Shown one piece after another: positions 1 to 20,493 of a stretch of DNA of 64,000 nt (the first letter of the stretch is position 1; every line of letters starts with the position of its first letter). The DNA is from Perna viridis (lineage: Eukaryota): NCBI GenBank assembly GCA_037379345.1, contig CM074520.1, positions 8,928,001 to 8,992,000 of the forward strand, read 5' to 3'. A model generated the notes under the pieces. That model ran no database searches, was not told the DNA's origin, and saw only the letters and a list, made by a program, of their open reading frames with translations. The position numbers were made by a program, and so were the translations under genes.

Positions 1-320
1 TTTTTGGAAAAAGGAGAGAATGATAAGATGTACATAAAATATGGATTATTTTAAAACATAAACTGATACCATAACATTATGGAGCCTGATGAATTATATA
101 TAATGCTGGTGGTATCTTTTTGCATGACTTCTCAAAACCGGCATTTTACATTGAGCAATGCTGATCAGACTTAACGAATGATCTAATTACAATTCATTCA
201 AGAAAGCAAAGCAATATATGATGGCACGAAAATGAACTAGAATATACAGGATGAAATGTACAGAAATAAACAAAACAAAAATAAATCCCTATCAGCAACT
301 GGAGGAGGATAAATACTCAC

Positions 321-1097
321 TTCAGATAATATTGACTTCCCCTTTGTTCTAAACAGTAGAAATCAAAGTGAATTACATTTGGTATGTTAACGCTATATTG
401 CTGTATAACGGTAGAATTATAGAAATTCATATCCCCTCTATCAGCTCCCTTCCACACACCTGACAAAGTCGATGGAAAATCACATGGTTGTGAATCTGAA
501 ATATATAAATGGTAAAATCGTAAAATACCGGGTTGAACAAAAAGATTTTTTCATGAGGAAGAAATGAGACATATGATATATCATTTATTATATCTTTAAA
601 GTCAGGTGTTTACATAGCTTTAGCGTGCGATATGTTTTCTTCGTTTCATTCATTTCATCAGTGGCATCAGATGGTTGAGATTCAACATGTTCATTAGTAT
701 GCTAAACCTAAACGCTTGGATGTAACGTAACACGATTCATAATGTTTGCATCCTTAGACATTTAGAAAATCCTTAAGACATCCTTAGAAAGATTATTTCT
801 ACTCTTTTTTTTTAATATTAATATCTTACTTTACTTATTGATTTGATAATGCGACAACTTTTGTAGAGAACACTTTATATATTTTTATTTACAGTGTTTG
901 TCTTTGAGGTAGTCGATAATGACAAACAAATTTCATGCTATTTTATCTTAAATTTACCCGTCGTCTTTACATTTCCTGAAGGTGTGAAAATTAAATAAAT
1001 TAGGACTTCATAACAGTCCTACCATGGAAACAATTATACTAGACTTACCTCTAATTGTAAAGAATAAGATACACAATACAATTGATACCAAGGCCAT
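321..1097 (-). CDS. Cys-rich secretory-pathway protein, paralog A (first two coding exons; gene continues beyond the left window edge)
   Basis: Exon 1049-1097 encodes a signal peptide MALVSIVLCILFFTIR (donor gtaagt, phase 1). Exon 321-495 (175 nt, tttcag/gtgagt, phase 1 to 2) encodes DSQPCDFPSTLSGVWKGADRGDMNFYNSTVIQQYSVNIPNVIHFDFYCLEQRGSQYYLK. Phases and the C..P / DFxC..YxLK motifs match paralogs B and C. Confidence 0.8.
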
Positions 1098-2825
1098 CTT
1101 CTCGAAACATCGAAAGTTAAAAGATCTAAAAAAAATATGAACTAAAGTTCATTGAATCATTGTGGTTTGTTAATATTATGTCAAAGTTACCATGGTCTTA
1201 ACATAGGGAACTGCAGGGTTATTAAACAAAAACCCATTTGTTGAAATAAACACAGAAATGTTTTAATACGATTCCCTTACTTGATTAAAACAAACGAATG
1301 TTTATTTCTTCTGACCAGTATTAAAGCTCTCACATTCTGACTGCATGAGAAGGAAAGATAACATCAAACATTTTAACAGATGTAATCATCCATTTCAAAA
1401 ATGAAATTTATAACCACCCCTTTAAATACACGTTGTCTTTGTTAAACCAGTTATCGTTGGACGTTAGTATTCACGAGAGATGGTCGTTAATTCTATATGA
1501 ATTGGTCAACCAGTTGAAATATTGTAATTTATACCAATACTTCTATTTTTGGTAAATGATGAACAATCAGTTATTTGATTTATACTCAGAAAGTAAATTA
1601 AATAATAAACATGACAATTTATTATGAAACATAAACGTATTTTTTTTTATTTCGTTAGTTGAAGAATATTGACGCTTTCATGTCCAGATTCCCTCATTGT
1701 CAATAGAGACATTAAAATGGTAATGGATTATCACGATATATGCAAATCATTGAGAAAAGGAAAAAAACAACATTACCATTTTAAAACTGCTTCCAGTCTG
1801 TTTTGAAAAAAAAAGTTGTTTTTATGAATCCGCATATTTGACATACATGTAAACAAGGTGAAGTTTTAACTAAAAAAGGATTTAGCAGAAACGTAAGTAG
1901 TTTGTGAAAACATAAATACGACTGATTTTAAATATCTTTTACTTTACAGCGTACTATTTATTTTTTAAGCTGAAGACAAGTACATAAGTTAATAAAATCT
2001 AACAAGAAAGAAAATTATTGTCAAAATACTGTAATAGATATAATACTGTTACCAAAGGGTTTTTTCAATGTAAACGTGGGCTGCATGTGGAATTATATAA
2101 TGCAAAATTTAGCTCTCGAAAAATAAACTTAGCTTGCTCATCGTACGCTATTGGTTTGTGTATTTTTGTTGTTCTTGTATAATTGTTGGACGTACAGTTG
2201 GGTATTGTTAGATGTAGCATTAGTATTGTCTGTTGTCACTTGAAAGAAGCTTTTAGGCACAGTAATACGATCTTAATCATTCACTTTCTTATAATTAATT
2301 CAAAGCTTCATTTCTACTTAGCATATTGGATGCATTAAAAATGATGGTAAAATTGAAAAGGAAATGGATACAATCTATTGAACATTATGTCTGTTACTTG
2401 CATTGACATTTTGGGGTTGCTGGGGTCAAGTGAGAGATTTATCTTTATAACTTTTAAGTGGGTTCCTTGTGACATGTTAGCTATTCTAGTTAACTGTTGA
2501 CCCGAAAGTGAATATGCTCATTGTAATGTAAACCAAAATTAGTCATTGGGACAGCAGTGAACTTTTTGCACTAATCCAGAATTCATTGTCATTGGGCATT
2601 TAAACGTTAATACTTTTACAATGTTATCTTACAGACGCTGTTTGAAAAAAAAAGCATTATTTCAAAGTATTTTATTAAATGGCTGTTTTAATTGCTTAAG
2701 CGTTAAATTGTCAATAATTTAAAAATTATATATTAAAGAGAAAACATTGAAAGCAACTATTGAGAAAGCACCATTACGTATATGTAAACACCAGAAAGTG
2801 CTAACACCGAGTGTTTATACAATAT

Positions 2826-3022
2826 TTGGGCTTTGTCTGCTGGTACGACAACATATATGTCATGTATAGTAGACAATGTTTTTGCTACATCGGGGTTTTT
2901 TGAAAACTGATGTAGCCTTGGCACTCATTGACCTACTTAAAACTTTCGTTTGTTTCAAAATTAAAGACCTCACGGCCTTTAGCACAATTACCGCTATAAC
3001 CTTGGTTCCCTTGATTACACTT
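2826..3022. mobile_element. Chimeric Penelope-like (Naiad-type) fragment: internal piece (-) joined to an inverted 3' terminus (+)
   Basis: 2826-~2980 closely matches ~6010-6170. ~2988-3022 is the family 3' end (ATTACCGCTATAACCTTGGTTCCCTTGATTACACTT) in the opposite orientation. Confidence 0.75.
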
Positions 3023-3039
3023 GCACATGCATTGAATAT

Positions 3040-4547
3040 GGTCTCACTAACCACTTCCGGGTCAAATGGCCACCCCCCTATGTAGTACCAAAAACACACT
3101 GAACCTAGACATATGCATTGTAAGTGCATTATTTGTGTGTATTATGATTAAAAGTAGTCAAAATAAAGCTGAGAATGTGTACTTTAAGATCATATATGTA
3201 ATTAACTACAAAAGTGTATGAATATTGTTTACATGTGTGAGTAATTTGCCTCCATGCTGTCAGTTAGCAGAACAGGTAAAAATGTGGATTTTCAGTATTA
3301 TTTATTCAAGTAAATTTTGTGAAGAATTTCTACTATGATCGTACCATTAGCATAATGATTTTGGAAGCCTTATTTTCCAAGCTTCGCAACGGTATGCAGC
3401 TTGAAGATGTCATTTGTCCTGGGAATTCACAGTGAGACTTTGAAAATTACTTTTTTAACATGTAAAGTAATGGAAACGTTAGAAGTGGTTAGTGAGACCA
3501 TAAATTAAATTATGGCATATTTCAGAGAAATGCATAATTTGAGGAAAATTGCCTTTCCTGGTCATTATTTCCATTTTCCCATAAAATCAGTATAGTGATA
3601 TTGGTAATCTGGCTATATTTTAAGAGGTGCATTGTGCAAGGTATTTTAAAAAACAACATAGCAACAAGATTTTTATCAGTAACAGTTACTCATAACTTGA
3701 CGTCATCCATGAAATACACAACGTCACTGCTTGGGATATTCAAAGTACTCAAATAGTCACACAGCACAGACTAAGAATCACACAGTAATGAAATAGGTAT
3801 GATATAAATTGTTGAAATCTGTTCTTTTTTCATAATGATAAATGATATTTACTATTACAACTTCTTGAATTATCATAGGTATCAATTTGGTGTGACAAGT
3901 TAGTTAAAATTGTAATTTTTTAGTAATTTAGGGAAAATATCACTGAGGGGCATGATATAAAAATGACCATTTCTTTGTAGTCCTATGTCTGATTTTGATA
4001 GTTTTGGTCTTATTAGACTCACAATACCACAAGCTTTCATAAAATGTAAAAAAAGAAAAAACATAAAAACTCATAAAATGTTTTTAAGGTCTCACTAACC
4101 ACTTCCGGGTCAAATGGCCACCCCCCTATGTAGTACCAAAAACACACTGAACCTAGACATATGCATTGTAAGTGCATTATTTGTGTGTATTATGATTAAA
4201 AGTAGTCAAAATAAAGCTGAGAATGTGTACTTTAAGATCATATATGTAATTAACTACAAAAGTGTATGAATATTGTTTACATGTGTGAGTAATTTGCCTC
4301 CATGCTGTCAGTTAGCAGAACAGGTAAAAATGTGGATTTTCAGTATTATTTATTCAAGTAAATTTTGTGAAGAATTTCTACTATGATCGTACCATTAGCA
4401 TAATGATTTTGGAAGCCTTATTTTCCAAGCTTCGCAACGGTATGCAGCTTGAAGATGTCATTTGTCCTGGGAATTCACAGTGAGACTTTGAAAATTACTT
4501 TTTTAACATGTAAAGTAATGGAAACGTTAGAAGTGGTTAGTGAGACC
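3040..4547. mobile_element. Non-autonomous composite DNA transposon, KolobokP-like: two 460-bp long terminal direct repeats around a 588-bp non-coding core
   Basis: 3040-3499 and 4088-4547 look identical. Each has its own TIRs GGTCTCACTAACCACTTC...GAAGTGGTTAGTGAGACC, GG..CC termini and AT-only 4-mer flanks (ATAT, ATAA, TTAA, TATA). The outer TSD is imperfect. Confidence 0.8.
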
Positions 4548-5087
4548 TATAGACATAATTTGTTTTGGTTATCATTCTTCCCTAATGTACAAGGCTTAAT
4601 TGAATTCTGATTGTCACACCGATTGCAGGGAAGTTCGCCTCGTCATGGTTCTCTTAGATTAGTGTGGGCGAGGCCTAAAATGCCAACAGAACGTTCATGA
4701 AAACAAATACATAAAAACTGTATTCGACACATTAAATTTGTATATGAAAACAATGATTGAGGGATAAAATTGGTGAATATTGATGCCAGCGGTAAACATG
4801 GATTAAGACGGGTAGCATGTCCTTAATTTGGACCTGTCTTAGTTTGTTTATTATAAATTAACTGTCAGAATTATTCTTGGAATAGAACAAATATATCTGC
4901 AAAACTTATTTTACACGAAACCAAAACACTTGTTTTTGTTATAATCGGAAGTATTCTAATTGTGCTATCGTTATGCCAACTGTGGTCTTTGAACTTTTTT
5001 TTTTGTTATACATCTATTGACAAAACAAACTACGCATTTGAAATACAAACATACCATTCGTATGCATTGTATAGAGCTAATTTAGAT

Positions 5088-5131
5088 ATGCTGTACACCT
5101 GTTTCAAGACGCAACCTCTCATCAGCAGCAT
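5088..5131 (-). ncRNA. Minimal type I hammerhead ribozyme
   Basis: Minus strand reads ATGCTG-CTGATGA-GAGG TTGCG TCTT-GAA-AC AGGT GT-A-CAGCAT. This gives a perfect 6-bp stem I, an intact CUGAUGA/GAAA core, a wobble-rich 4-bp stem II, a very short near-palindromic stem III and a GUA cleavage triplet (cut between 5094 and 5093). Confidence 0.75.
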
Positions 5132-5233
5132 TAGAATCAACTTTATAGGAAGATGTAAATCAAAACATAAACTGTATACAAGAAGTACATAAAACCAAAA
5201 CTATCGAAATAGGAAGCCAAATGCAACATGTGC

Positions 5234-6372
5234 AAGAGTAATCAAGGGAACCAAGGTTATAGCGGTAACCAAAAGAACGTAATTCAGGGACAAAGACCAG
5301 ACATGAGAAACAGACATACACAACAAAGAACATAAAGTAACTAAAATCATACATACAAAGTAACAAAAGTAAATGAGCAACTCGGACTCCACTAAAAACT
5401 GGGAGCAGGTGCACTGGTAGGGTAAGCGTCCTCTGCTTTTCTAGAAACACCCGCCGAGTTGCTCATAAAAAATCAAGTCCGGGGTAGACAAACGAGGAAT
5501 GGTAAACTATGATCCGTTGAATAAATCAGTTTTCATGGTGCTGATGGATACACCATAACGATCCACGAGTTCATGATGACGACCATAAAACTCCTGTAAT
5601 GATGACTTCAACCTTGTAGCAAAATAACCCTGTTCCACAATCCTATTTGTTAGAGTTCTAGTGCGATACAAAACGTCTGCGTAGTTTCGGCAAGCTCTGG
5701 CATAACGTATGAGTTGTGATATGAACACTCCATACGCAGGAGCCGAAGGGATGTTGCCACAGATGAAAGGAAAGTCGACAATTCTGACAGAAAAGTCATC
5801 ACGTTTGTCGTAAAGTTTGGTTAATAGTTTTCCTTTTCCATCGATTTCTAAGTGTAGGTCAATATATGAGGCTGACTTCACAGTGTCTGTAGTATCCTTT
5901 ATCTCAAGTTCTTTTGGGTAGATGCAATGTATCAAATCCCCCAATAATAATTATCCTCTGATAATAAACATTGGACATAAAACGTTTTGCAGACAAAAAC
6001 AATGTTGTTTTGGGCTTTGTCTGCTGGTACGACAACATATTTGTCATGTATAGTAGACAATGTTTTTGCTACATCGGGGTCTTTGAAAACTGATGTAGCC
6101 TTCCTTGGCACTCATTGACCTATCTAAAACTTTCATTCGTTTCAAAATTAAAGACCTTACGGCCTTTAACCACTCTGGCAGAGAATCAATGTCTTCTTGT
6201 TCTCGTTTTATCCATTTCCTTGCATAGTCCTCGACGGCATCCATAAGAACTTTGAAGTTATAATTCCAATTTATGGAGCGTGGTTCACGATACTTGGGAC
6301 TTTTAGAAAGGATATTACGCAGAGATTCGTTTTCGATAATGGTTAAATCTCCCGTAACGACGTGACCAGAAT
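5234..6372 (-). mobile_element. Penelope-like retroelement (Naiad-type, RT at C-terminus), 5'-truncated and internally deleted
   Basis: ORF 6044-6376 has GHVVTGDL..LRNILSKxPKYREP..INW, followed by a frameshifted VVPADKAQNNI. ORF 5507-5944 has [49 protein letters not shown] and stops with no C-terminal GIY-YIG. The RT core is deleted near 5945-5990. Structured 3' UTR at 5234-5506. Confidence 0.85.
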
Positions 6373-6709
6373 ACAAGGATTGAAAATAATCTATGTTTCA
6401 TGTGTTCAGGAAATCAGGACTATTGCAGTACCGGCTGCTCTGATGGTGCAATATCGATTTTCCCAGATTTTTTTTGGTCTTGTCTTGAGTATGGATCGGA
6501 TTAATGTTTGGTAATTTTGTTGTTACCCTTATTCACGTTAAGGCCGTGATTTAGGATTTCGACGCATTTGAAACACCCTAATATGACGTTTTGGTATTTT
6601 TAACCGATATGTACCTAAGTGTTTCACGTATTTTACATATTTTGAAATTTGTAATACTGCAAATTTGGATAATTATGTCAAATAAAATCTTTCGGGGTCA
6701 GTCAAGTCC

Positions 6710-6900
6710 GACTGCTGGGTTGGTGAATATCTTTGAGGACCCTTAGTTCACAAGCATTACTGATTACTCTATATATATATGTAATTGAAACACCCCACTA
6801 TTGACGCTTCGGTATTTTTTTTACCGATGTCTGACCACTGGGTTGATGAATATCTTCGAGGACCTTTAGTCTACAAGCATTACTAATTATATATATTTGT
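6710..6900. repeat. Degenerate two-copy repeat (~123-bp spacing)
   Basis: GACTGCTGGGTTGGTGAATATCTTTGAGGACCCTTAG..CAAGCATTACT at 6710 recurs with substitutions at 6833. Both copies end in (TA)n. Confidence 0.6.
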
Positions 6901-8379
6901 TTGATCACCATCCGTTTAGTGTCCTTCATTTTATAGTTCTTTTCTCTTCTGTGATTTTTTTATTCGTTCAGTCTCTAAAACAGTTACATGTAGTGAGAGG
7001 GGCCTATTATATCGCCCTGAAATGCATGTTGATTGGTTTACTATTTGAAAGATAGATTTAACGTTCTATGACAGATGTTTCATATATTTAAGAATGAAAA
7101 CGCTTGATCAATTGCATAACCCTACATTTTACTAGCTTGACCTGCTAAGCTAGACTATCATTGTTTCAAGACTGTAAATTACAAATTTAAAATGGAGGCT
7201 TGTGATCACGCAAAACAGTATTTTAACCCCGTCGCATTTTTTGCACCTGTCCCAAGTCAGGAATTTTTAGCCTTTCTATGTATTGTCTGGTTTTCACTTT
7301 CAGTTTACTTTTAGCTTCCTGGTGTATATAGGAGAAACGATTTTGCTGTACCTGTGTATAATTTTGTTTTGGGGGTCAACTGCAGCCTGCCCTGTAGTTT
7401 GAGGTTTTCCCCGTCGTTCATTGAAGACCCATGGTTGCCTTGAGATATTTGTCAGCCCAACAAAATGGTTGTCTCTTTAAAATATTCACTATATTTCCAT
7501 TATCGTTATGCATTATGCTTTTAACGTAGGAATAAGTTAGACGAATAGTAATCGTTTTGCGTCTTTTTTTTTAAATATTCTCTTTTAATCGAGGTTTTTT
7601 TTCCAGAATATCAATACGCGCACATTATTTTAACTTTGATCGTTTTGTGTATATTTCTGATCCTAATGTGAAGTTTAGTAAATGATGTAAAAGAGATGTT
7701 TTGGTTGACACAAAAGCCCAGAATGGTCGATTAAAGGGTCAGAAACGATTGTTTTATTGTATATTATCAATCCTTATGAAAAGGAAATCAAGGAAACTAG
7801 GATTTAAATTTAAAAGTACAAGCTGACTGCTTCTGTGGGCAAAAATGAAATAAAAAGATGTAGATATAAAAGCAAATATTAAGATCCATACGATAAAAAC
7901 TTTTTTTATATTGTATTTCACAAGCATTTTTGTAGTTTGTGAAGCACACGAAAAAAAATATGGCAAATGAAAAGATGAACTCAATGCTGTATAAGTTTGT
8001 TTCGATATTGTCCATGTCAAGTTTTTAATTTTCACTATGTCCAGTTTCAGATAACACTGATATCTTGGCATGCAATATTTCAACCTCGCATCATATATAT
8101 ATGCACCCTTGTATTAACATTCTATGTATTTACATAGTAATGGGAATAGAAGTAAGGTGGGGGGGGGGTTGAATTCCCACATCCCATTAGACATCTTACA
8201 TGTGTTATATGCTACTGCTCTACTGCCTCATCAGATACCATCAGACGTCCTTTCCAGTTACATCATAAGCTTATGTCCGCACTCTAGATTTACGTACGAG
8301 AAAGTATTACTCTGTTAATGAAAGCTATATTTTATATAGCCTAGTTGGCTGAGTGGTCTATAGCGTTCCCCTTTAATCT

Positions 8380-8510
8380 CGAGAGGATTACAAGATTTTT
8401 CTACTCGAGATAATTAAAATTAATTTTAAATTTCAACTCACGAACTTTAACGAGTGGGTTAAATCTAAAATGTATCTATCGAGAGTGGAGAAATCCTGTA
8501 ATCCCCGAAG
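8380..8510. repeat. Long imperfect palindrome, probably part of a non-autonomous DNA element
   Basis: GGATTACAAGATTTTTCTACTCGAGATA ... TATCGAGAGTGGAGAAATCCTGTAATCC are inverted arms. Confidence 0.55.
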
Positions 8511-9230
8511 GAATTGGAGGAGAATTTGTTTCTCCCATAAAACCTTTAAAAACTAGTAAATGTAAGATGGCAGGAATACTCTCGGAGAAATTTAATCACC
8601 TTTTGGTGGTTAAACAGTTACGTGCATTTTTAATCATCGGCGGAGAATGAGAGAAAGAATTTAATATACCGTCAAAAAATTGATGATACACCTAAAACTA
8701 ATAAAATGTGTTGTAACAACAAATGAATCGTGTGAAAAGTCGTTTGGTCATAGTAGAAGCTTAACTTCACAACTTGAGTTCGCAATATCACTTCTTTGTA
8801 GAGGACAAAGTCCTCACAATGGTAACCAATACAAAAAACCCTTTTAACCTTAGAAGTACTATGAGCCTGATTTCAGTCTGACAGGAACTTGTAATACCAA
8901 GGGTAATACAAAGCAAGGATTCATGTTTTTAGTTTCGTATCTTTAACAACATTAGGTGCATATAGCTTTAACTTATGCAGAAAATATAAATCGTAGTTGA
9001 TGTAAAATTGTTAAAAACATTTTATAAAGATATCAAAATTCATGTTTGTATCCAACTTTTTCCTCTTACTGGTTACATCTACCTCATATTAAACACTTAT
9101 TTACTATAATCAAACAACACAAATATATTAATATAACATCACTTTTCCGGCATTCACATACATAGACTTCCTATACAAACTATCTCCTATTTTTTTATGT
9201 TCACACACTTCCGAAAAAAAAATGACGAGG

Positions 9231-12200
9231 TCACCTTTCATCGTTGTTTTCAAATAGTCCCGAATCGCTGACACTGATCTGGGTATAGCTTCGGTGTATT
9301 CCTCCGCTCATATAGTCATCAAGGGTGTCCCTGTATAACGGTTTGATGTTTGGAATTGTCATTACACCAGCTGGTTTTTGTTCCAGGAATATAGCACTCA
9401 ACATTGTAAATTCATCCACGGGTTTCTTTGGTCTGAATAATGAACTCATATTAAAATCGGGTGGTTGCACTATTGGTCCGTTAAATCTTGCACGTCCAAC
9501 CTTTTCACCTTTGCTAACATCAATTTCTGTGGGAAGTCTTGGGGAAAGACGTTTCTTCTTAAATTTTGGTAACTTAATTTTTGGCCGTTTAATATGTTTA
9601 CATATACAACCATATTTTTTGTAGCACCACATGAACATGCAAATTATCCAGATTAGGAGAGGAATGAAAAACAGAGCACCAATTGTGTAGTATAGCCAGG
9701 ACAAGCTAACAGGTTCTTCTGGTGTGGCTAAGAATTCAATGTTAAGAAATAAAAGTAAAAAGTGAGATTCACGCTGGAAAATGCTTAGATTTTTTTCATC
9801 AGCAATGCAAAAATTGGCAAATGAAGAGTGTACTTAAGTGCTCGTTTTAATTCATATGAATGTTTATTTGACTTCTCATGATTACACATCGATGAAAGGA
9901 AATCCTTCTATATAATTGTTAATTGTGTAAGGTGATATTTTAAACACACGATAGACTCTGAAATCGACAACAGTAAAATTATAAACTTTAAACATCGACA
10001 AAACAACATTTGTGTTGCGTTAAACACAACAAATTAAAAAAGGTATAATTTGATATTTATAACAAACATACAACGTACCTGGTACAGTGTCTAAACATGT
10101 CTCTGAAAAAGAAGTGATTGTTCACAAAAATCAAAGGCTATCATTGATACTATCAATAAGTTACTGTTCAATCAAATAAATTACTTTCTTGTCTAAACTA
10201 GCTAAGACATTAAAATTGAAGTAAAAGAATGCGTAATTGTATTATTTTAGAACTTTCTATCATAATGTCACTTTTACTTTTATTGTTAGAAATTCATATA
10301 TATATGACAAAGTGTGCGTGGAAGAGATATCAAGTTTGTATAACGGCATTTTGACCCTAATATACTTTTCCGGTCATACCATATATATTCCAGATAACAT
10401 AAGAGACACCATTTGCTCCGGGGTTTGTAGCGGTAGTTGCAACTTCACATATGTTAGGTGTTTCCGTTGCATAAACTACAGAACCTTCCTTTCTAAAAGC
10501 CTGCCAAAATGAATGAGATAGTTGGTTATGTTTATATCAATACACAGATAAATTAATAAAATTACAAACCATTCAAATTAAAAATAATCATCGTGGAAGC
10601 CTTGTTTTTTTTTTGTTTTTGCTTTTTTTGTTGAAATGATAAATCTGAAAAAAATATTGTATTTCCCATCCACTGACTTTTGGGTGATGAATTTCACATG
10701 GACGTGATGAAATTTGTTTCTGATGGAATCAGGTCAATGTTACGTCATCCTGAGTATTTTTTTCGGTAATTTTTTTTATTTAAAAGAAAGGAAAATAAAA
10801 TACTATATAGTGATATTATTGTACTTAAATAATCATAATTCATAGTAATAAGTTCGCACAAAAAGACGTACCAAACAAGAATACCGAAACGTGTTTGTTT
10901 CATCCACATTCAGGTCTTGATTCCATAGACCTAAATAGGACGATGATCCCACAGTTGTAGAAAATAAACAACTGTAGTTACCAGTACCTGAAACATATGT
11001 TGTTCTAATAACATATAATAAAACAACTCGATACAACATATGAAAAAAAAAACAAATAAAAACGAACAGAAAAAAAAAAACAAAACAAAAGTGTCAATAT
11101 GGGTGTATTAAGATGAATCAAAATCAATTACTTTAAACATGCTAACTTCGAATATTAGGTTCTTGCTATATTTAGTATAGAAACATGGTCGATTATACGT
11201 TTTATAACAGCCTTACTTGAGAGTTGCTTTGCTGGAGCCGGACACGAATCATTATAATTGAAACTGACCATGGACCTGTCGGCACAAACATCCACTCGCC
11301 CACCATCACAGTTTTGTGTAGAACCAGCACCAGATGTTACATTGAAACTAAGAAATACTGCCAGTAAGTCATCGGGACATCGTTCATTCAGTAAACCATC
11401 ATTGAATGCATCTTTATGGAAAAGTAATAAAAATGAATTAATTGTACTAGTATACAGATATTATTCTTAAAACTCATATTCTTAAGCTTAATACAAAATA
11501 TCTTTCAAAATTAGTAATTCTAAATTTTATCAAACTGTTGGTAGTTCATTCATTGTTGAAAGCTAAATTTGGTTAAATTCCTTGTTAATATCATGGGATA
11601 AACTTGATCAGTTGACTATTTTAAAACAATTATCAGGCCAATAGAAACTATAATTTATTCTCTTCGAATATTTATATAGCATCACCTCCCTTTACTAGCA
11701 TGACAAAAGTCTGTTTTTCATAAGGATATGGACGGTTACATGCGTCTTCAAAAGTACCACTATTACCAGTGGAATCTCCGTAAAGGTGGTCCTGTGCTAT
11801 AGCATGGTATTCTGCAAGAAGTAACCATATCATCATTTAGTAGAAGATTGATATGTCAAGAAACGACACTGATCATGGGACTATGAAAAGCAAATACAAA
11901 TACTATAAAATATAAAATTCCTATTCCAAAATTATTTTCTGGATTAAAAATAATGAGCTTAAGATTTCAATGTAGATACTTCGTAAAGTGCAACGCAAAA
12001 ATGCTCTTTATATCTTCTTTTTTAGACAAAAGATGTTTTACTGGTTTTGTCGTCGTATACAAACCTGTTCCAAGATAATAATAATACGTGTAGTTATTCA
12101 CTTTGAATAGCTCGATGCACATATAAAACTTTGTAATCACATTAAAGATGTTCGGCTCTTTCACCATTCTGAAATATATGATAAAATGTTAATGCTAGTA

Positions 12201-14748
12201 ACCATATTTAGTTTTTACATCCTTAATAGTACTATATTAGAATACCTCGAAACCAATTTTCAGCCTTAGTTTACAAACATTTTAATTTCATTTTTACTCA
12301 TGAATTTCATATAATCCATATCATTTGAAGCCTAAACCTAATGCAGACATATTCCGTGCTTTAATACTTATATCTCTATTGACAAAAAAGTATTAATGGA
12401 AAACGATAGGACATTTGTTGTAATATTTATGTATAACTGTTTGATAAATACTGAATAATACATGTCAAAATTTGTATCACATGCGGTATCAACCCGAGAC
12501 AACTATATCACCCCAAGGACCATAGGTCGAAGGTTGATACCACTCGTGATACAGATTTTGATCTGTCATGTTCATTATACCATATTTTTTTAACTATACT
12601 TCAAGTATGGTCGGTGAAGGGGTGCGATATAGGTATGCGATATAGATCTAGGGGTGTGATATAGGGTATGCGATATTGGTCTAGAGGTGTGATTTAGGGT
12701 ATGTGATATAGGTCTAGGGGAGTGATATAGGCTATGCGATATAGGGTAAACGATATTGGGTTTCAACAACACACATGTATATTTTAATCTAAATGTATGA
12801 AAATACTTAGTTTCGTTCACACTGATTAATTTCATTTACAAAGAAATATTTCTTACTTTAGGAAATATCGATCATTTCTTTTTTCAACACATTCAAAATC
12901 AGAATGGTCAAAATCTGTGAGCGGTATTGTCAGTGGGTAGTTGATAAAGTGTGTCGTGTTGGCACCAAAAGTTCCTATAGAGGCACTGATGTAGGTGTCG
13001 GAATCTACAAATGGCATGGCACAAAGCGCAGCTGAAAAACAGAAACTCCAAGTGATATACTATATACTAATTTAAGGAATTTGATGTACTTACACGGAAG
13101 TCTTTTGAAATATTTTATTTTTAGGAGTAAGCATTATCAATATCTATTTTCCCTTGCATTACTCTTACTTCAGTTTAAAAATAAATGAAAGCACCTTAAA
13201 AGAAATATTACAAAAAAACCGGTGACGTAAGTATAAGTAGTATAAGTAATCAGTGACAAACATTATACACAACAATGGGTATATGTTGAATCCACACAAA
13301 TGTCTATATAAAGTTGTTGAGTATGTTTTATAATGTGTTTTTTCATATTGATCCTGTAGTAAGTCCAAAGCCCAAAGACAGTCCTTTCGGACCAAGGGTA
13401 GATGTATTGGGCCTTAGCCTTGCCTCAGTCCAATAGGACTTGTCGGAGGACATGATACACGACCAATAAGAAGACAAAAATCTTCTTTGACACATTTATT
13501 TACCATGCAGTTGTGTAAAATATAAAAAAAATATTACTGTGTTGACACATACTGTAAGGATTCGTGTATAAAATGCGCAAGTAAGACGGCGCTCTTGTCA
13601 CATTTAGCTGTGGAGCCAGCTACAGTTACAGTTAGATATAAATTGTAGCATAATTGAAAATAAAATTGCGCATATTTTATTGGTATATTTCTATTCCTAA
13701 ATTATAACAAAAATATTCTGTATTATTTTGTTGACTACCGGAAGTATAATATCCATATTGAGCCTGTTCGTATGAGGCCAGTTAATCCATATTCAGCCTT
13801 TTTTCATATGGTGTCTATTTTCTATGTATTAGGCCTGTATTTTCGTATCGGTTCAATTATCGATTTTTTTTAAAAATAATTCTGGACATATAAAAAGTAT
13901 TGAATGGACAACTGTAATCACATTTTACACAACTGGTTAAAGAGTAATCAACAGAACCAAGTTTCTAGCGGAAATCAAAAGAATGAAATCCAGGGACCAG
14001 ACATGGAAAATAGACAATAACAACAAAGAGCAATAAGTAACTAAAATAATACATACAAAATAACAAAAGTAAATGAGCAACTCGGACTCCACTAAAAACT
14101 GGGAGCATGGAACAAGTGCACCGGTAGGGTGCAATTCTAAAAACACCCACCGAGTTGCTCATAAAATGTCAAGTCCGGGAGAGAAAAAGGAAGGAAAACT
14201 ATGACACGTTGAACAAATCAGTTTTCATGGTACAGATGGATACACCGTAACGATCCACGAGTTCATGATGACGACCATAAAACTCGTGATGACTTCATCT
14301 TTTAGCAACATAAACCTGTTCCAGAAGCCTAATTGTAAGAGGTATAGCTCTGGCATAACGTATGAGTTGTGATATGAAAACTCCAAAGGCAGGCGCTAAA
14401 GTGATTTTGTCACAGTTGAAAGAAATTAATTCATATTATTGACGTTATAAACACTTTTCACAGTCTTACAATAACATCAAAAGTAAATATTTTGATTATT
14501 TCCTATTTGTTACATGTTGACAGTTAATATTAATTGATATATCGTAAAAAATACAATAAAAGTGTTTCTACTATGAAAATACCGGACAGCGAAAACATGG
14601 ATCAGAATTAAAAAGAAAACTTTTTTACATTTAACGAAATCTTTGACATTGCGTTTGAAAAATAGCAAATTAAAGACCAAAATTATTTCTGAATATAATT
14701 ACCTGCAGATGGTATCCAAATCGAAATAAAATAAAATAAAAACGTCAT
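9231..14748 (-). CDS. Cys-rich single-pass type I membrane protein, paralog B (9 exons, 467 aa; uncharacterised)
   Basis: Exons 14703-14748, 12857-13031, 12065-12168, 11686-11811, 11217-11411, 10872-10987, 10380-10500, 10079-10102 and 9231-9727 are all GT-AG and phase-consistent, total 1404 nt. Hydrophobic N-terminus MTFLFYFISIWIPSAA, Cys-rich ectodomain, TM WLYYTIGALFFIPLLIWIICMFMW, basic Cys-containing juxtamembrane region and a ~130-aa tail. Confidence 0.88.
12460..12745. repeat. Palindrome plus ~33-bp minisatellite (non-autonomous DNA element remnant) in an intron
   Basis: Inverted arms CAAAATTTGTATCAC..GGTATCAACC / GGTTGATACC..GTGATACAGATTTTG, followed by three to four GATATAGGTCTAGGGGTGTGATATAGGGTATGC-like units at ~12626-12745. 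Confidence 0.6.
13940..14425 (-). mobile_element. Naiad-type Penelope-like element, 3' fragment
   Basis: Matches 5234-5770 (RT C-terminus [12 protein letters not shown] plus 3' UTR) with deletions. Confidence 0.85.
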
Positions 14749-15940
14749 CCTTAAAAGAGGGGTAGCATTAACATGCACGGACAAAATTGAAATGGAAACA
14801 TAACACATAGTAAGAACAAGATCACTTTTCAACGTACTATACTGGATGCTGCACCTAAATTACTTTTATAACATGTTATTAATGTCATTAAATTGAAAGG
14901 GAGCGTTACTGTGTATATAATTGAAAAATACCTCCTTAAACAAGAATACTATTGTTCTTATATGGATGTTTAATTACAACGTGACGATTTTTGGCGATTT
15001 ATGGTTTTTTTCTTATTAAAAGTTTTTAATAATGTAAATCAGGTAGCAGGTACTTTTTTTTAAATACTTATAAATTCAGCTAATTTTGTATGTTCGGCAA
15101 AGACCACCTTTCAACCGTTTATAGATTCATGTTAAGGTATTTGTTCGTGTTGGTATACAATGCCCGTAAAATAAAAACTTACTAAAAACAGCTTATACGA
15201 AGGTGGCATCAACAATATAAATTCATAATTCTAATCTAGGCATATTGAAATATTTTTTTCCACAATTACTTATAGTAATCTATCTAAAGAAATAAAATAG
15301 GTATTACTACATTTTATACAGTTGTAACCTCTCATTACAAACGTTATTTTATAGGTATAATGACTCCCTTTACCAATTGTCCATGCTTACTTTCTTTCTA
15401 AAATGTTACATAACTTTAAGCCACCATCATGTACATATCGACCGATAAGGTGTTACTACTTATCTCTACTGTAGATAAAAATTGAGTCCATTTATCAACG
15501 TGTTTATAGTGTGTGCTTATTGAACACAATATTATTCAGTGTTTTTAAAGCTGGCGACTCTATACTCATGCAATGTCCCTGTGTCGCCAATCAGTTACTT
15601 TTAGTTTTATACGTTTTTAAGGTTTTAAGTTAGGATTTTTTTCATCGTCTGTGTTACTTCAGTATTGCTTTCGCGTTTATTTTGTTTTTCGTGACTAGGT
15701 TTTAATCTCGTATTCAAATTGATGTTAAAAATCTATGTTACAGTATACTATTTTAATATTTCACCGAGTGGGACGCAATAGAGTTTAACAACGCCCATTT
15801 ATGCTCAGATGGTTAAGTTGGTGTTTGAATAAAAAGCACGTTTTAAAGAGGTTTAATCACTTCTATTTTAACTTATCAAATCAGCAAACGGTTAAACGTT
15901 CCCTTCTCTTAATCGATTCAGTACAGCATATACTAAGACG

Positions 15941-18302: not shown

Positions 18303-20493
18303 CTATTGTCGAAAGACAAGGATTCGTTTCCCACAATCACTAGATATAACTAGCTTTCTTAACTTTCTACTGTAATGAATTGCATACGGGAGATGGAGAG
18401 ATTCGAAGGCAGGTTCATCAATGAGATACTTGCTTCCATCAGGGGAGACCTCTAAAACATGCGGCGCTGATCCGTAGTTGATAATAAGGATTCTACTCTC
18501 CGATAACGAAGTTATACCTTTGAAAATTGAACCCGGGAACTTGAATTTATAAACAGTTTCCCCCATATGATCAAAACAAACAATTGAACTGTCATCATCA
18601 TTGGTGAAGAAGATTTTGTTTCCGCATACATGCACGTAATTTCTGTAGCTGACAGGAGTTATGACAGTGTTGATAATTTGACCTCTATGATCAATAACAA
18701 GTAATCCCTCCGTCTTACACGCAACCACAAAATACTTGTTCATTTTGGTAATACCAAAGCACCCGTAGGTAAGTTCAACAATTTTGCGCTTCTCTTTGTC
18801 TTTCAAGTAGACTACTTGAAAGTATTTTTTAAACGGAAGTGTCACAAAAGCCCTATTTGGGTCAACCATTGCAAAATCAAACGGCTCATCTTTCAGATGG
18901 TATGTATCTAAAACACTGCCGTCTTCGGCACAGTTAAGTAAACGTTTGTTTTTGCTATCTGCCAACAAAAGGTTCCCGTCATCAAGGATTGTGACACCAG
19001 TAATCATTACTTTATCTTTCTCGTCTGCTGGTATAGCAAAATCGGACGACAAGTAGAAACTTGGAACTATTGCTTTACGCTCAAAGCTGAAAGTGTTTTC
19101 CAGACGGTTCTTATCAACATACTTGGGCAGAATAGGAGTAAGTGTCCGGTTTCGTTTGCTGTTGTTGGGCGACTCAGTGTCTCTAACAGTGAGAATATCC
19201 ATATCGACATGGACCGGGCTGCACAAATGCGGATCAAAACCGAGCTGGTGTGCTGAATATGGAATTTGTGTCCGATCAGTGTTTTTAGGAACATCAATTT
19301 CTACTTCAGTTTCCATAAGGCGGACTCCGCCTATCTTTTCTGCATTCAAAAGTTTCTGAAAGCTACTTTGAATCGACAGATCAACTTTCATTTGCTTTAC
19401 GCTTTCAGGTAAACTAAGCAAATACCGCTCATGTCGCGTCTGCACGTGAGCACAGTCCTGGATAAAATTAACGGTTTCGGCATTCGATCCCACTAATTGA
19501 AGCTCTTCAATCATTTCAAGATGTGCAGTAATAGCCTTTCGTTTTTCTTTTAAATCATCCATCTGAACTTGAAGTCTTGACTTATAGTCACTTACATCGC
19601 TGTCTATGTCTTCTAGAAGTTTTCTTACGAGACTGTCTATTGCTTTTCGCATATTTTCTTTGAAGTCGTGAACCTGATCTTTCATTTTGTCCTTTTGAAG
19701 GTCTAAGGCCTTAATATTTTTATTTCTATCCTTCAGAATCTTACCAAATGCAACACTGGATTCTTTTAGCCTCTGCTTCAAATCATTGATCGCAAAGGAA
19801 TTACGTGCACCAACACCATCGGCGTTGATGTCCAAAGTCTTGCAATTGAAATGCGAAACGTCTTTTCTACAAAGATCACAAATTGTGTGATTGTGAAACC
19901 GGCAGTACATTGATATTACTTTTGACGGATGTGTCCGACAGAATATAATCGGTCTCTCCTTTCTCAGGGCAAAGATGTGGTAATCCTCAACGGACACGAA
20001 GCTATGATTGGACGAGAATTTCAGTTTTTGGTGACGTTTCTTGCACGGAGAACAAAGAAACTTGTCACATTTATCACACCAACCAACAGCAATTTTGTTC
20101 TTTCCTTGTCCAGCACAGTTGTTGCATGGAAAAGTCGTAGCCATTCTTGTTGCTGAAAGAATAAATGTGTTCAACATCAAATTTATAGTGAACCCCTGCT
20201 ATATTTGACTTTAATTGTTATTCATTGATATGTTTAATTTAATGCGTAATATGTGGTTACTTAAGAAAAAAAAATTTGCTTCAAGGCATGAGCCCCAATT
20301 AAGTTGAATGTCTGTGATGAATGCCAAAAGGCTTATTTGCCCTGAATAACCACACCCCCTTGAGATATTCGAAACGCCCTATATCCTTTTGTTTTAACAT
20401 TAACCCCATCCCGACCCCCTACCCACCTAAAAAAAGATTGACTGATAGATAAGTGAATATTGACAACTTACCCGACATCGTTTTACCAGCCAT
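18303..20493 (-). CDS. RING-less TRIM-like protein: two B-boxes, coiled coil, NHL-like beta-propeller (623 aa)
   Basis: Exon 20472-20493 (MAGKTMS, gtaagt, phase 1) splices in frame to exon 18303-20152 (acceptor tttcag). B-box1 CNNC..WCDKCDKFLCSPCKKRH..H, B-box2 CRTH..YCRFH..ICDLC..H, heptad-rich middle, and ITGVTILDDGNLLLADSKNKRL-type propeller repeats. Confidence 0.9.

Follow-up and report, generated by a model that had tools for sequence, protein, structure and literature searches.

Here we assign the hammerhead ribozyme motif in this 64,000-nt stretch of Perna viridis DNA (the window) to a decayed copy of a 381-383-nt mussel-type retrozyme, which was likely split by the chance insertion of a Naiad, a Penelope-like element (PLE). 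The retrozyme family is itself likely a non-autonomous passenger of Naiad that carries the 63-nt start module of that element. The retrozyme is an additional mussel retrozyme, and the locus itself is an ordinary Naiad insertion in ordinary debris; its interest lies in the tie to Naiad at the level of the family.

The original prediction described a type I hammerhead on the minus strand at 5131-5088, and all of its claimed parts and its cut site could be located in the sequence. Stem I comprises 6 bp (5131-5126 with 5093-5088), the core elements are CUGAUGA (5125-5119) and GAAA (5105-5102), stem II has 4 bp including two G-U pairs (5118-5115/5109-5106), and stem III has 2 bp with a 4-nt loop. 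The triplet is GUA (5096-5094), with cleavage predicted between 5094 and 5093. CUGANGA, GAAA, and NUH thus stand in the type I order of canonical metazoan hammerheads. The predicted extension of stem I (helix 1 of the alignment) is paired in 82% of cells. Taken alone, the core pattern is within chance, with three matches in the window against 1.34 expected and counts as high in 15 of 100 shuffles, and the fold of the window copy is not above chance (z 0.37). Rfam searches of window positions 1-15000 and four family loci gave no hammerhead match at E values up to 10, and with one Naiad head added they gave no ribozyme or other credible family. Despite a single core at chance level, the hammerhead is a genuine family motif, because it belongs to a repeat family: one 40-nt version has 84 exact copies in the genome, a looser pattern has 642 matches, and 4950-5300 as a query yielded 4,662 first-look candidates, 40 of which were scored.

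The motif had been called minimal, a label that does not fit: according to Cervera and de la Pena 2014 (PMC4209133), canonical metazoan type I hammerheads have 6 bp in helix I, 4 bp in helix II, and 1-2 bp with a palindromic loop in helix III, and the sizes found here agree with these. Minimal PLE hammerheads usually lack helix III and have a long helix II (6-8 bp) and an extra base before 10.1 (PMC4209133); the window motif departs from them in helix III, in helix II length, and in the base before 10.1. Against the majority of 29 other copies, the window copy differs at four of 44 positions (5112, 5110, 5109, and 5099). The change at 5109 adds a wobble, and that at 5099, where 22 of the 29 have C, breaks the stem III palindrome. 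The window copy therefore has canonical helix sizes but has lost the palindrome, which is perfect in most family copies, and its self-duplex energy is -3.6 kcal/mol versus -12.3 kcal/mol with an intact palindrome. Core, stems, and palindrome are all intact in 10 of the 29. The wobble-rich stem II had been read as a sign of decay. This is wrong for the G-U pair at its base, as U at 5106 (position 11.1) occurs in 29 of 29 other copies and is the family state; it is right for the wobble at 5109, and the palindrome break at 5099 is decay as well.

Because G10.1-U11.1 departs from the conserved G-C pair, with C present in a minority of copies, the family ribozyme may be slow or dead. Across the hammerhead alignment, nine of 17 pairs change on both sides and none of 500 shuffles reaches the score. 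This signal stems from five rows of other hammerhead families, chosen by core pattern, and supports the fold rather than the activity of this family.

By sequence comparison, the hammerhead is part of an old copy of a mussel-type retrozyme, a repeat of 381-383 nt. Tandem periods are 381 nt (L021), 383 nt (L015, L097), and 379 nt (L110), and monomers are found singly, 5'-truncated, or head to tail. The family thus has the makeup of a non-LTR retrozyme, a low-GC non-coding unit of 150-450 nt with a type I hammerhead, present as monomers and tandems. Folded as a circle, the L097 monomer shows modest self-pairing (z -2.3, with 1 of 100 shuffles as low). Family copies have a variable 5' side and a fixed 3' end, which lies about 45 nt beyond stem I and about 50 nt beyond the predicted cut. 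In the window the retrozyme is present as two collinear halves on the same strand (6760-6612 and 5233-5041), and the downstream half ends at about 5041, the fixed 3' end of the family, 4 nt before the would-be module start. Among 24 loci like 6534-6760, 14 continue into a hammerhead within 600 nt. With no second hammerhead of the family in the 64-kb window, a broken palindrome, and a degraded module, the window copy is likely inactive. The features of the locus are collected in Table 1.

Table 1. Features of the retrozyme-Naiad locus in the window.
Feature	Positions	Strand	Basis or remark
Downstream half of old retrozyme copy	5041..5233	minus	about 80% identical to young monomer
Predicted stem I extension past 4-nt bulge	5082..5140	minus	MFE fold; 5140-5136 with 5087-5082
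Type I hammerhead ribozyme motif of retrozyme	5088..5131	minus	sequence, fold, copy comparison
Dead, 5'-truncated Naiad copy	5234..6371	minus	motifs and comparison with L086/L087
Naiad remnant, RT C-terminal part	5944-5507	minus	followed by 3' UTR to 5234
Naiad remnant, piece with GHVVTGDL and DKA motifs	6371-5955	minus	motifs
Spacer, Naiad remnant to upstream retrozyme half	6372..6611		6533-6414 recurs elsewhere in genome
Upstream half of same retrozyme (monomer about 105-255)	6612..6760	minus	sequence comparison
Degraded module copy, 5' strand of outer helix lost	6706..6766	minus	sequence comparison
Second degraded module copy, 123 nt upstream	6829..6889	minus	sequence comparison

Hammerheads were also seen in other settings in this genome. 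A minisatellite (L096, G000:C1 about 47448235-47449800) consists of about 34 head-to-tail 45-nt units, each consisting solely of the family hammerhead; a version with three units lies at C1:47552729-47552845, and DNA run X18 contains 44-45-nt step-back joints at the hammerhead minisatellite. A young non-coding element of about 890 nt (L129-L135, L137, L139-L141, L143-L145; mostly 97-99% alike) has a hammerhead core and a palindromic stem III, with no clear stem I. Further hammerhead families (L138, L146, L147, L148) have G10.1-C11.1 and a GUC site, and L146 and L148 each hold two hammerhead motifs about 516 nt apart.

A Naiad-type 3' end had been noted near the hammerhead on the same strand, and a Naiad-like end was indeed found at 5234, with a 35-nt tail (5268-5234). 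Relative to L086/L087, the remnant has an internal deletion of about 670 nt. CxC and DKA motifs are both present in L086-L088, and DKA is present in the window remnant. The region upstream of the RT in L086, which is absent from the remnant, matches the Naiad_Mgal endonuclease closely by eye. Pfam searches of seven pieces gave sub-threshold RVT_1 on two and no GIY-YIG, and a PDB search gave nothing. The natural Naiad unit is 3,409 nt, and a copy of the 3' end stands before its head, forming partial tandems; the body of 3.4-4.4 kb, partial tandems, and 30-40-nt tail of Naiads are thus all found here. As in the published Naiad clade of PLEs (PMC8557442), which has a GIY-YIG endonuclease upstream of the RT, there is a region before the RT that looks endonuclease-like by eye, CxC, DKA, a 3.4-kb unit, 5' truncation, partial tandems, a 35-nt tail, tens of thousands of ends, and no canonical hammerhead. 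Unlike in that description, insertion targets were not (TA)n in the 29 ends examined here.

The sense strand of the whole 3,409-nt Naiad unit lacks CTGANGA, as do all 30 of 30 Naiad 3' stretches, and no canonical hammerhead was found in the Naiad of this genome, whether in its 3' ends, the window remnant, or the whole unit. A hammerhead belonging to the Naiad 3' UTR is ruled out by the other Naiad ends that lack it and by the absence of CTGANGA from the unit. The statement that Naiads lack canonical hammerheads applies to the Naiad here. Craig et al. (2021; PMC8557442) list core-only hammerhead motifs in some Naiads and, in the accessible part of the paper, none for Mytilus Naiads.

Naiad material is common in this DNA. 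Seven more Naiad 3' ends lie in the window (13940, 27432, 35255, 36107, 36617, 43591, and 3022), about one per 8 kb. At G000:C3 46030347-46081511 (L171-L185, L331-L336), at least 16 full Naiad units stand head to tail with a period of about 3,409 nt; the examined unit has a broken frame, and the Naiad copies seen in this analysis are broken. The Naiad 3' UTR in the window contains a long predicted hairpin (5467-5372, minus strand); by eye, the inside of this hairpin looks similar to a motif that other published Naiads have close to their 3' ends. An inverted Naiad RT piece with the 35-nt tail occupies 2825-3029, and 2988-3029 is an inverted repeat of 5227-5268, including 7 nt past the Naiad end. 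The tail at 2988-3022 was rejected as a daughter of the window Naiad, as the RT piece is 94-96% identical to other copies versus 92.5% to that of the window.

The tie between the two families is a shared 63-nt module. The retrozyme monomer and the Naiad 5' module align over 63 columns with 55 identities (87%) and a score of 83, against at most 30 in 200 shuffled monomers. The module lies at monomer positions of about 90-153 and resembles the first bases of Naiad_Mgal; full-length Naiads and the retrozyme monomer both open with it. The rest of the monomer had no other match in eight long Naiad loci. At tandem junctions, both retrozyme and Naiad continue with this module directly after the 3' end. 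The whole module follows the Naiad 3'-end copy directly in 14 of 17 Naiad heads examined (two of the 17 come from a single array); the remaining three have a deletion in the module, part of it, and none of it, respectively. Relative to the module, 3' ends fall at -7 to -1 in 28 of 30 Naiad copies. Of 58 retrozyme loci, 17 lacked an anchor; among the 41 that could be anchored, 38 end in the same interval, and the five at -7 may include false anchors. As the shared segment lies just past the ends of both families, the Naiad enzyme likely copies the retrozyme.

An 11-nt motif of the module, CTGCTGGTGGA, has a wider distribution. In the accessible part of the Craig 2021 supplement it occurs 11 times, always at Naiad heads, from oysters, ark clam, pearl oyster, mussels, hemichordates, and one more species. 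The genome contains 189 exact motif loci, and the first 30 comprise 20 Naiads (five from one array), nine retrozymes, and one other locus, with no third carrier of the module among them. The module is also present in the published 375-nt Mytilus retrozyme, a short distance past the cut (PMC4918200 Additional file 11, figure text). A metagenome scan for the motif gave 120 stretches, 80 of which were fetched; 64 of these 80 (GC 47% or more) were set aside as likely bacterial chance matches, and the 16 AT-rich loci were analysed. Eight of the 16 have a hammerhead motif on the same strand, and four are Naiad heads or junctions, two with the Naiad nuclease region downstream and two with an RT end upstream. 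At L192, L204, and L212, two hammerhead motifs 340-355 nt apart flank the module.

A mechanism can be proposed from these arrangements. If the family works like the published mussel retrozyme, hammerheads that pair via the palindromic stem III would cut tandem transcripts, and the products would be ligated into circles. By analogy with anole Poseidon, the Naiad reverse transcriptase would then bind to the module and initiate cDNA synthesis 1-7 nt upstream of it, on retrozyme circles as well. On a circle, such priming would fix the 3' end at a point other than the cut site and leave 5'-truncated copies, and synthesis running for more than one round would produce tandems. On balance, we lean toward the module being an RNA signal for template recognition and internal start by the Naiad RT, conserved from molluscs to hemichordates, and toward bivalve retrozymes being hammerhead circles that captured it. 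The retrozyme copy in the window would likely be a bystander.

The main rival reading treats the module as DNA, an internal promoter acquired by the retrozyme from Naiad. In that case the site of transcription start or stop would account for the 3' ends beside it, and reverse transcription need not depend on the module. In Penelope and Chlamys, internal promoters occupy the region 5' of the ORF (PMC8557442), which is where Naiad has the module, and the high primary-sequence conservation of the module from molluscs to hemichordates suits a factor-binding site. Furthermore, covariation of the module fold is not significant (86 of 500 shuffles score as high; 23 alignable rows), so the module may act as DNA. 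An Rfam search of the Naiad head gave no match for it. However, the Naiad and retrozyme copies of the module are predicted to fold into the same three nested helices, and in Naiad_CGi, Sglo, and Pfla the outer helix has different letters that by eye still pair. A promoter also leaves unexplained why, on a template that is likely a circle, retrozyme copies stop about 50 nt beyond the cut and 1-7 nt short of the module. We therefore consider the promoter unlikely and retain a start signal in RNA as the preferred reading.

It is also conceivable, and we think very unlikely, that the retrozyme took the module from Naiad once and is now moved by another Penelope-like element with its own hammerhead. 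Canonical PLEs with hammerheads coexist with mussel retrozymes (PMC7229834), other hammerhead families are present in this genome, and Xenopus retrozymes match PLE pLTRs (bioRxiv 10.64898/2026.07.22.740005). On the other hand, the module remains 87% identical to that of the resident Naiad and the end positions of the two families agree, no third carrier appeared among the 30 module loci, and no other RT was seen beside the retrozyme copies examined.

A close known counterpart is the non-LTR retrozyme of Mytilus galloprovincialis (PMC7229834; PMC4918200). Its AT-rich units are likewise 350-390 nt long and occur both dispersed and in tandem, with a type I hammerhead whose stem III is small and palindromic and with the module a short way past the cut. 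It differs in its stem sequences and has G10.1-C11.1 and a GUC site, whereas the family here has G10.1-U11.1 and GUA. Cleavage (about 0.1 per minute) and circles were demonstrated for Mytilus, while for the family here both are predictions. In their accessible parts, the Mytilus papers name no autonomous partner, and the Naiad description (PMC8557442) makes no mention of a conserved 5' module or a non-autonomous hammerhead partner. According to a 2020 review, metazoan retrozymes have no conserved motif that would indicate the mobilizing retrotransposon (PMC7761336).

Xenopus retrozymes (bioRxiv 10.64898/2026.07.22.740005) resemble the family here as non-autonomous PLE derivatives. Their homology is to PLE pLTR regions, whereas the family here has just the 5' module in common with its partner, which lacks a hammerhead; that study, as far as accessible, examined the link between retrozymes and pLTRs in Xenopus and not in invertebrates. 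The proposed start resembles that of Poseidon PAc of Anolis carolinensis, the only PLE protein reconstituted, which initiates reverse transcription at internal sites of the RNA that correspond to the genomic 3' ends (PMC11167929). Poseidon PAc belongs to another clade, has its own hammerhead, and starts in a stem-loop inside the ORF, whereas the candidate signal here is a non-coding module common to element and passenger. The anole protein-binding region spans the start sites and lies within the ORF, which makes the analogy with the Naiad module loose (PMC11167929).

Naiad and retrozymes go unmentioned in the accessible part of PMC10294476. In the literature covered, which included few subscription papers and repeat databases, the two appear together only in PMC8557442 and bioRxiv 10.64898/2026.07.22.740005, as far as these are accessible, and no link through the module was found; priority in print or in Repbase is possible. 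A module found in both a hammerhead-less autonomous element and a hammerhead-bearing passenger joins two questions, what copies retrozymes and what determines PLE 3' ends, and it fits the idea of hammerheads riding on PLEs that do not need them. If true, the proposal would identify both the enzyme and the cis-element responsible for the only invertebrate retrozymes demonstrated as abundant circles in molluscs. The module would also be a portable 60-base tag with which a telomerase-related integrating enzyme could use any circular RNA as its substrate.

At the window locus itself, the Naiad next to the hammerhead is likely a chance insertion into a retrozyme copy. Two explanations had been offered for this adjacency, and the collinear halves and the lack of genome-wide 3'-end linkage favor the first, insertion of the Naiad into an older copy of the retrozyme. 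The genome contains 27,544 exact matches to the 16-mer at the Naiad end. Given these ends and the 642 hammerhead patterns, at least 0.75 pairs with a hammerhead 70-130 nt downstream of a Naiad end are expected; with a hammerhead 12-mer, one was observed, the window itself, and hammerheads are thus not linked to Naiad ends genome-wide. Neither the retrozyme repeat nor a hammerhead core was present at any of 29 other Naiad 3'-end loci. Naiad insertions into the retrozyme are found elsewhere, clean in a monomer at L095 and antisense at L155; the left junction in the window is not clean, with a 240-nt spacer. When matching was relaxed, five junctions on the same strand fell at monomer positions of about 263-293 (window, L002, L007, L099, and L149), most of them from searches built to find them, in which three of five sense hits and one of two antisense hits were real. 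About eight junctions are expected in such a 30-nt stretch, given a local density of 11 Naiad ends per 90,814 nt and some thousands of retrozyme copies. The cluster is within chance, and a mild hot spot or preference is possible.

The second explanation, that read-through RNA gains a self-cleaved 3' end, found no backing in reads: none matched 4560-5174 at 97% likeness in one raw RNA run, perhaps from another animal. A functional adjacency, with Naiad preferring this retrozyme spot or switching template onto it so that read-through RNA gains a self-cut 3' end, is highly improbable: in its favor are the five clustered junctions and a Naiad end at -104 in one of 30 hammerhead loci taken in positional order, and against it are the genome-wide count, the differences among the junctions, the antisense insertion at L155, the lack of reads over 4560-5174, and a window copy with neither palindrome nor hammerhead partner in the window.

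In the same run, 376 reads pass from the Naiad end into diverse flanks. The retrozyme family accounts for 1,549 reads in 10.4 million records, most of which continue into other sequence and represent host transcripts. This RNA run, X21, shows no pile-up of read ends at the hammerhead cut site; 64 of its reads span the monomer junction, which tandem DNA explains, and their strand is likely antisense. At L097:2750, 100 reads of X21 pass from the hammerhead into Naiad 3' UTR sequence; these come from another locus that is expressed and has a piece of Naiad inserted downstream of the ribozyme.

Two further features of the window were noted. A 463-nt element with inverted ends is present in two copies that are 99.8% identical (3037-3499 and 4085-4547), and it also occurs in L097. 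It is likely a MITE, and the near identity of the copies could reflect a recent duplication or an assembly duplicate. On the minus strand at 18306-20198 lies a 631-codon open frame with a cysteine-rich and putatively B-box-like start.
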